DNA from: a virus
Lineage: Duplodnaviria > Heunggongvirae > Uroviricota > Caudoviricetes
Reading direction: 5' to 3' (one strand)
DNA: 37,035 bases
Virus record (IMG/VR): IMGVR_UViG_2541047861_000014
In this document: one piece after another, positions 166 to 385 of the stretch
How positions within the stretch are numbered: the first letter of the stretch is position 1
Layout of the letters: each line of letters starts with the position of its first letter
The notes under the pieces: generated by a model
The model's database searches: none
Seen by the model: only the letters and a program-made list of their open reading frames with translations
Told to the model about the DNA's origin: nothing
Position numbers and translations under genes: made by a program

Positions 166-385
166 TCCCAAATTAAAGCTCTTTTACTCTTTCAAAATCC
201 TTTCAGTTAATTGAGGTCTAGTTATATAACTCATTTAAATACATATAGTTATGTGGCTTCTTTAATTGAAAATTCTTTCATGTAACTTTAAATCGATCAG
301 GTTGCTTTCATCAAAAATCTGTACATATGCTTGTACATAATGTACAAAGCAGCAGAGGTGTTTTGCGATTTGTACAAGGTGAGTA

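Follow-up and report, generated by a model that had tools for sequence, protein, structure and literature searches.

The four TGTACA hexamers upstream of the integrase gene int, at the left end of the window (the whole stretch of 37,035 nucleotides analyzed here), very probably constitute the int-side half of eight integrase arm-type sites in the phage attachment site, as judged by sequence comparison. The hexamers are located at 320-325, 332-337, 341-346, and 371-376, all within the final 66 bp 5' of the int ATG at 386. The preliminary description had reported four copies in this place, and they are real; those at 332, 341, and 371 are exact, and the first occupies 320-325, not 319-324. The near-palindrome that it had noted in the cluster is likewise present (TGTACATAATGTACA, 332-346). 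The first two copies form a candidate tandem arm-type pair (320-337, plus strand) with a 12-bp period, belonging to a 22-nt module, TGTACATATGCTTGTACATAAT, that recurs on the other arm of attP. The third copy (341-346), a candidate extra arm-type site of ambiguous strand, makes up the near-palindrome with 332-337 and is kept in the E. coli phages and in Pantoea; an Acinetobacter locus (L036) has an extra GTAC core, not a full TGTACA, at about -45. The fourth copy (371-376), the candidate int-proximal arm-type site, is situated 10 bp 5' of the ATG, directly against the Shine-Dalgarno sequence AAGGTGAG. Read on the minus strand, as an inverted copy, it agrees better with the family consensus rTGTACAyA.

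TGTACA shows no overall enrichment in the window, with 7 copies observed and 7.06 expected from shuffles. Four of the seven are packed into 57 bp, an arrangement with P = 5e-7 under random placement of seven sites. Meanwhile, in the region 156-385 (30% G+C), 0 of 20,000 dinucleotide-preserving shuffles reach four copies. Because of this packing and the shuffle result, the cluster stands out from the rest of the window, and the similar density elsewhere, which had been named beforehand as an argument against a dedicated function, is not found. With the asymmetric consensus ATGTACAA, searched over the whole window at up to one mismatch, 28 matches are obtained against 30.4 expected, and no enrichment exists beyond the cluster.

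The window opens at the attL of a lambdoid prophage that interrupts prfC at its 5' end. Positions 1-90 contain the host prfC promoter region, within the host yjjG-prfC intergenic region, followed on the plus strand by a truncated host prfC 5' fragment (91-161) that is broken by the prophage insertion. Its first 22 codons (91-156) are presumably those of prfC, an assignment resting partly on the known PrfC N-terminus. In the RefSeq annotation of strain FY26, 91-159 is a truncated CDS, and an intact prfC is located at the far end of the prophage remnant. The identical insertion junction in the prfC codons is found in 16 of 80 related loci. The att core, ATTATTTCTCACCC(C), is 14-15 bp long and is located at 142-156 on the plus strand. 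This stretch is taken as the attL crossover region because two Stx-phage records, LC727889 and LC727891, annotate the 14-bp core as a "duplication due to insertion" at both prophage ends. Furthermore, the core is the point at which the window, with host sequence to the left, and the attP of phage 2H10, with phage sequence to the left, converge.

The first prophage gene, int (386-1609, plus strand), encodes a tyrosine integrase of the P4/IntSXT type and reads inward. The protein possesses an N-terminal Arm-DNA-bind_3 domain (PF13356, residues 3-90, E = 1.9e-16), followed by the Phage_int_M and Phage_integrase domains, and its N-terminal part has matches among the solved N-domain structures of CP4/P4-like integrases (PDB 3jtz/3rmp and 3ju0). 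At the DNA level, the int region is ~95% identical to that of phage cdtI, whose integrase is grouped with SXT Int in the prfC-targeting cluster of the IntSXT subgroup (Smyshlyaev et al., PMC8138268). The left 21 kb of the window are 99.4-99.5% identical to phage 2H10, except for a 1,331-bp IS insertion. The early-left genes are on the minus strand, convergent with int, which is transcribed away from the att junction. Core and int are on the same strand, and the upstream control region of int is thereby embedded in the att arm. Between the core and int (156-385), no sigma-70-like promoter is called, and only weak hexamers are visible by eye. Read-through of int from the prfC promoter is possible, because this promoter points toward int and no terminator is predicted between them.

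The same interval contains a further set of repeats. Four direct CTTTCA repeats on the plus strand (189-194, 200-205, 275-280, and 305-310) are situated between the core and the TGTACA pair, and they place 4 of the 26 copies in the window within 122 bp. Copies resembling yCTTTCA occur at matching positions in the Pantoea relative. These repeats may be sites for an excisionase or other accessory protein, and they are better candidates for such sites than TGTACA.

The intact attP of 2H10, the genome of a free phage, reveals the second arm. Four further TGTACA copies are located on the far side of the core, ATTATTTCTCACCCC, in addition to the four on the int side, and 8 of the 14 copies in the 46-kb genome fall within about 420 bp at attP. 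The top repeat family of this attP is the 22-nt tandem module, with its far-arm copy, TGTACATATGATTGTACATAAT, and its int-arm copy, TGTACATATGCTTGTACATAAT, separated by 264 bp. The attP repeats are accordingly distributed on both sides of the core, and their sequence is unlike that of the core. In the integrated state, four copies at attL and four at attR are found in both the Stx1a prophage LC727891 and the degraded FY26 prophage. The two-arm layout was examined in SPN3UB, Kpn_R1, and the close relatives from E. coli only. A search of attP with the IHF consensus WATCAANNNNTTR at up to one mismatch gives no match.

In addition, the far arm of 2H10 (L001, 2482-2543) carries a phage start codon and about 20 first codons of prfC, ending at the core. 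Therefore, integration rebuilds an intact prfC, in which the phage-supplied 5' end replaces the displaced host part. The SXT element reportedly supplies a replacement prfC 5' end as well, in work attributed to Hochhut and Waldor in 1999. The tandem TGTACA module of the far arm is located 23-46 bp upstream of the phage-supplied prfC start codon.

Conservation of the array was followed among integrase relatives by scanning one genome per species, which yields 80 loci, 43 of them with an Int at 40-98% identity. In these 43 loci, the density of TGTACA is 13.2 per kb over the 150 bp that precede int and 0.135 per kb elsewhere, roughly a 100-fold enrichment. A GTAC pair at exactly 12 bp is present in 38 of the 43, usually with a third copy at a distance of 7-45 bp to the ATG. 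In many genera, relatives with Int identities as low as about 40% share a TGTACA-N6-TGTACA pair and a proximal copy upstream of int; their hosts include Pantoea, Serratia, Pseudomonas, Marinobacterium, Variovorax, Microbulbifer, Acinetobacter, Shewanella, Xenorhabdus, Photorhabdus, Morganella, and Thiothrix. The arm consensus is rTGTACAyA, and the consensus of the proximal site, derived from 21 loci, matches that of the pair only when reverse-complemented. In an alignment of eight sequences, comprising E. coli phages and the Pantoea relative (83% Int identity), no base of the four hexamers changes, while the spacers vary. A prfC island of Vibrio diabolicus contains a matching layout upstream of int, and the motif also precedes int in genomic islands of Vibrio, Pseudomonas, Acinetobacter, and others.

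The reverse test, starting from the motif, is consistent with this distribution. Among 120 viral-contig matches to TGTACA-N6-TGTACATA, nine carry an Int homologue, and in all nine the motif precedes int by 40-66 bp and has the same orientation. The motif scan yields four non-E. coli viral contigs; all are attL forms with host flanks and contain no second arm. When diverged attP forms were sought in IMG/VR with an integrase alignment, only relatives of at least 97% identity were obtained, many of them cut at int. Taken across the sequences compared, the TGTACA arm code appears to be kept from 98% to about 30% Int identity in gamma- and betaproteobacterial elements, and such a conserved code would be usable as a signature for attP boundaries.

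The arm word also changes with the integrase. In Salmonella phage SPN3UB and Klebsiella phage Kpn_R1, with 46% Int identity, attP is intact and the layout is kept: a 19-22-nt tandem module is present on each arm, 234 bp apart, together with inverted copies beside int. The repeats there read TGTCCA, not TGTACA, on both arms. The two-arm repeats change together with the integrase, therefore behaving as expected of sites read by the integrase. Distant integrases (30-33% identity) possess other tandem repeats in that position, for example GGGGTACAT, GGTGTATCA, GTGTAGTCAGTG, and TTAGGACA.

Two observations accompany these comparisons. Across the distant loci (L051-L088, 30-33% Int identity), almost every sampled P4-type int has a tandem repeat within ~100 bp upstream of its start, typically with a period of 9-12 bp, about one helical turn, and with a lineage-specific word; such a repeat could be a general predictor of arm sites for this integrase family. 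Meanwhile, the attP of SPN3UB (L293, about 1053-1100) and that of Kpn_R1 (L294, same place) contain a short ORF, MKNIRNFSIIAHIDN*, which matches the N-terminus of LepA (EF4). In this sister lineage, insertion may occur at the corresponding 5' position of a different translational GTPase gene, with the phage providing a new 5' end.

The closest architectural counterpart is satellite phage P4, whose attP arm repeats were reportedly described by Pierson and Kahn in 1987. The P4 record annotates 12-bp "attP arm sequence repeats", with one tandem pair just upstream of int and another beyond the core, an inverted arm repeat over the int start, and a sixth annotated repeat inside int. Both systems possess an integrase with an equivalent N-terminal arm-binding domain and an int gene reading away from the adjacent core, and both have a tandem pair of 12-bp period on each side of the core and an inverted copy next to the int start. 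The two differ in several respects. The arm word is TGTACAyA here and GGGGGCAyA in P4; eight sites are present here, compared with five annotated attP-flanking repeats in P4, and the distances to the ATG differ. The target here is the 5' end of prfC, whereas P4 uses a tRNA gene (PMC8138268). The TGTACA array is most likely the P4 architecture with a different word, and an ordinary feature of P4/SXT-type integrases, as far as the sequences indicate. In its target and its DUF4102 arm-binding domain, the system resembles the SXT cluster, which includes the SXT/R391 ICEs and phage cdtI (PMC8138268).

Arm-type sites upstream of int also have a regulatory role in characterized elements. In the account of Piazzolla 2006 cited in PMC2951348, P4 Int is a repressor of int and binds close to its own promoter. 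In KplE1 (CPS-53), IntS binds arm-type sites at its own promoter and represses intS (PMC2951348). In ICEMlSymR7A, the 283-bp attP contains five required IntS arm motifs, and attP-bound IntS blocks intS transcription (PMC11963761). The order found here, from att junction to arm-type sites to an int gene reading inward, is that of KplE1 intS and ICEMlSymR7A intS, two genes with their promoter within attL, although the arm motif of ICEMlSymR7A, TGKTGGTATC, is different. Those two systems have mapped transcription starts, footprints, and reporter data, whereas repression here is inferred only.

According to the proposed explanation, the remaining four arm-type sites would belong to the far arm, beyond the window. 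Int would bind the TGTACA sites with its N-terminal arm-binding domain and the core with its C-terminal domains, thereby bridging the arms and the core into an intasome for integration. Excision would involve the intasome together with a small HTH excisionase. Simultaneously, Int occupancy would repress int transcription, whether this starts from a promoter within the arm or arrives by read-through from prfC. Negative autoregulation of int by Int through these sites would be expected by analogy, because transcription of int leads away from the junction and the 66 bp before the ATG contain all four sites; the case for it is evenly balanced. A broader proposal is that Int uses the tandem modules of both arms as dual-purpose switches, throttling int through the int-side module and tying the rebuilt prfC to Int occupancy or integration state through the far-arm module. 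This extension is rather unlikely; if the far-arm part were true, expression of the release-factor-3 gene would be linked to both Int occupancy and the integration state. The orientation of arm sites normally matters, and a palindromic word is unusual for them. TGTACA is a palindrome, and the orientation of the sites is argued here from weak flanking preferences only.

The preliminary description had suggested a direct connection of int to the immunity repressor. The immunity region consists of cI (7985-8659, minus strand), with a Peptidase_S24 domain, and cro (8750-8950). The operator palindromes described there are real, both those in the cI-cro interval, namely TTGTACCGATAAGGTACAA at 8676-8694 and ATGTATACTGGAGGTACAT at 8726-8744, and those on the other side of cI, ATGTATCTCATGGGTACAT at 7921-7939 and ATGTTTCTTTTGGATACAT at 7901-7919. 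These four CI operators are 19-bp dyads of the form wTGTAyC-N5-GrTACAw with 7-bp half-sites. The TGTAC/GTACA half-site core is indeed common to them, as SfV-type OL/OR operators, and to the hexamers upstream of int, as had been pointed out. If the hexamers were extra CI operators, int would be kept off in lysogens and released on induction, and the int-upstream pairs do reach 14.8 bits at a 3-bp spacer and 13.1 bits at a 6-bp spacer, among the best in the window for those spacings. However, unlike the operators, with their 5-bp spacer, the int-upstream sites are otherwise spaced and occur also on the far attP arm, which holds four of the eight, away from int. With a matrix built from the four operators, the operators themselves score 19.8-22.8 bits, whereas at the 5-bp spacing the int-upstream region 300-380 reaches at most 1.7 bits, ranking 82 in the window; no match to the operator dyad exists in the int-upstream region at up to three mismatches.

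Co-occurrence with the repressor fails in both directions. Twelve Stx1a-converting phages have an int region ~95% identical to this one and are absent among the matches to this immunity region; LC727891, the single Stx1a phage examined, keeps all eight TGTACA sites with a repressor only 32% identical to this CI and an operator region of GATAAAT motifs without TGTAC. Conversely, SfV possesses a 96%-identical cI, cro, and the operators, together with a different integrase, and contains three scattered TGTACA in 37 kb and no cluster. The range of TGTACA upstream of int is far wider than the few phages found with this cI, extending to islands and prophages across many genera, among them the genomic islands of Vibrio, Pseudomonas, and Acinetobacter. 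That the hexamers are CI operators is therefore highly improbable on these comparisons, CI cross-binding to them is unlikely, and the proposed wiring of int to the immunity repressor is left unsupported by sites that follow the integrase lineage. The alternative that the preliminary description had offered, integrase arm-type sites, is supported by the two-arm array, the tracking of the integrase lineage, and the P4-like layout.

The main residual rival to the arm-site reading is that the TGTACA repeats bind the excisionase instead of Int. The candidate excisionase (recombination directionality factor) is a 64-aa HTH protein encoded at 4233-4427 on the minus strand, with sub-threshold Pfam matches to HTH_17 and MerR. 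This gene is common to Stx1a phages that otherwise differ from the present prophage, and homologues are located directly 3' of int, convergent with it, in Pantoea (L010, 4202-4390), Serratia (L011, 4244-4384), and others; SPN3UB has an annotated "excisionase-like protein" in the position directly after int. The binding sites of excisionases are often direct repeats spaced by about one helical turn, and the 12-bp period of the pairs would suit such binding, as would the presence of HTH homologues alongside int in Pantoea, Serratia, and a distant enterobacterial group with TGTACA. Excisionase sites are typically on one arm, as in lambda, whereas equal arrays exist here on both arms and in both orientations, a better fit to Int arm-type sites, and the layout matches the annotated arm repeats of P4 one for one. 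Most loci keeping the pair are without a detectable HTH homologue within 3 kb, although this search is insensitive for a protein of 64 aa, and the CTTTCA repeats are better candidates for accessory-protein sites. Binding by the HTH protein in place of Int is consequently quite improbable, but the HTH gene co-occurs with int in several of the lineages with TGTACA, and therefore comparison alone cannot fully separate Int sites from excisionase sites.

A purely compositional origin, with the hexamers as a by-product of an AT-rich intergenic region or as mere promoter hexamers without a dedicated binder, is the least probable reading and can hardly be credited. The region is 30% G+C, and TGTACA resembles TTGACA at four of six positions. 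However, none of the 20,000 composition-matched shuffles gives four copies, the hexamers are invariant across diverged relatives in which the spacers vary, the enrichment upstream of int is ~100-fold over 43 loci, and no promoter-like site is called at the cluster.

On the reading of the hexamers as Int arm-type sites, an attachment-site architecture would be defined for a prfC-targeting integrase, comprising the core, eight arm sites, and 12-bp tandem modules. The principle of arm sites is textbook knowledge; the specific TGTACA code and its wide conservation were not found in the literature searched, which gave nothing specific on TGTACA arm sites or on the arm sites of SXT/cdtI-type integrases. 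About 700 complete E. coli genomes carry this integrase, as do Stx1a-, Stx2c-, and Cdt-converting phages, and the architecture offers targets for studying or blocking the lysogenization and excision of toxin-converting phages. Furthermore, TGTACA-N6-TGTACA 40-80 bp upstream of a P4/SXT-type int can serve as a signature for delimiting related islands, and the connection of int with the immunity switch, attractive but unsupported, falls away.

Several other features were observed along the window and in 2H10. An IS3-family element of 1,331 bp (1776-3106) is situated just 3' of int and separates it from the rest of the recombination module. Its two minus-strand genes, orfA (2650-3060) and orfB (1787-2692), encode HTH_Tnp_1 and rve domains; the element is missing from phage 2H10, and a 5-bp overlap flanks it in the alignment. 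Together with an unrelated 239-aa ORF (3231-3950), for which no Pfam match is found, this element displaces the candidate excisionase gene by 2.6 kb. Around the immunity region, the operator matrix gives 12.7 bits to AAGTATCTTGAAGGTTCAT at 8693-8711, a likely weak third OR operator located between the two strong ones. To the left of the OL operators, an isolated TGTACA at 7482 is located in the loop of a GGTACCAG/CTGGTACC hairpin (7450-7510), which is probably terminator-like and unrelated to the att sites.

Two familiar elements were also considered at the cluster itself. A sigma-70 promoter built from the hexamers is ruled out, as their 12-bp start-to-start spacing is incompatible with -35 and -10 elements and none is called. 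A LexA box, CTGT-N8-ACAG, does not fit either, the second half reading TTGT. In 2H10, two palindromes of the form CTGT-N8-ACAG, ACTGTGTTTGTATACAGT and ACTGTATGAATAAACAGT (L001, 2274-2323), are located 5' of a DinI-like gene beside attP, and by their sequence they look like LexA boxes.
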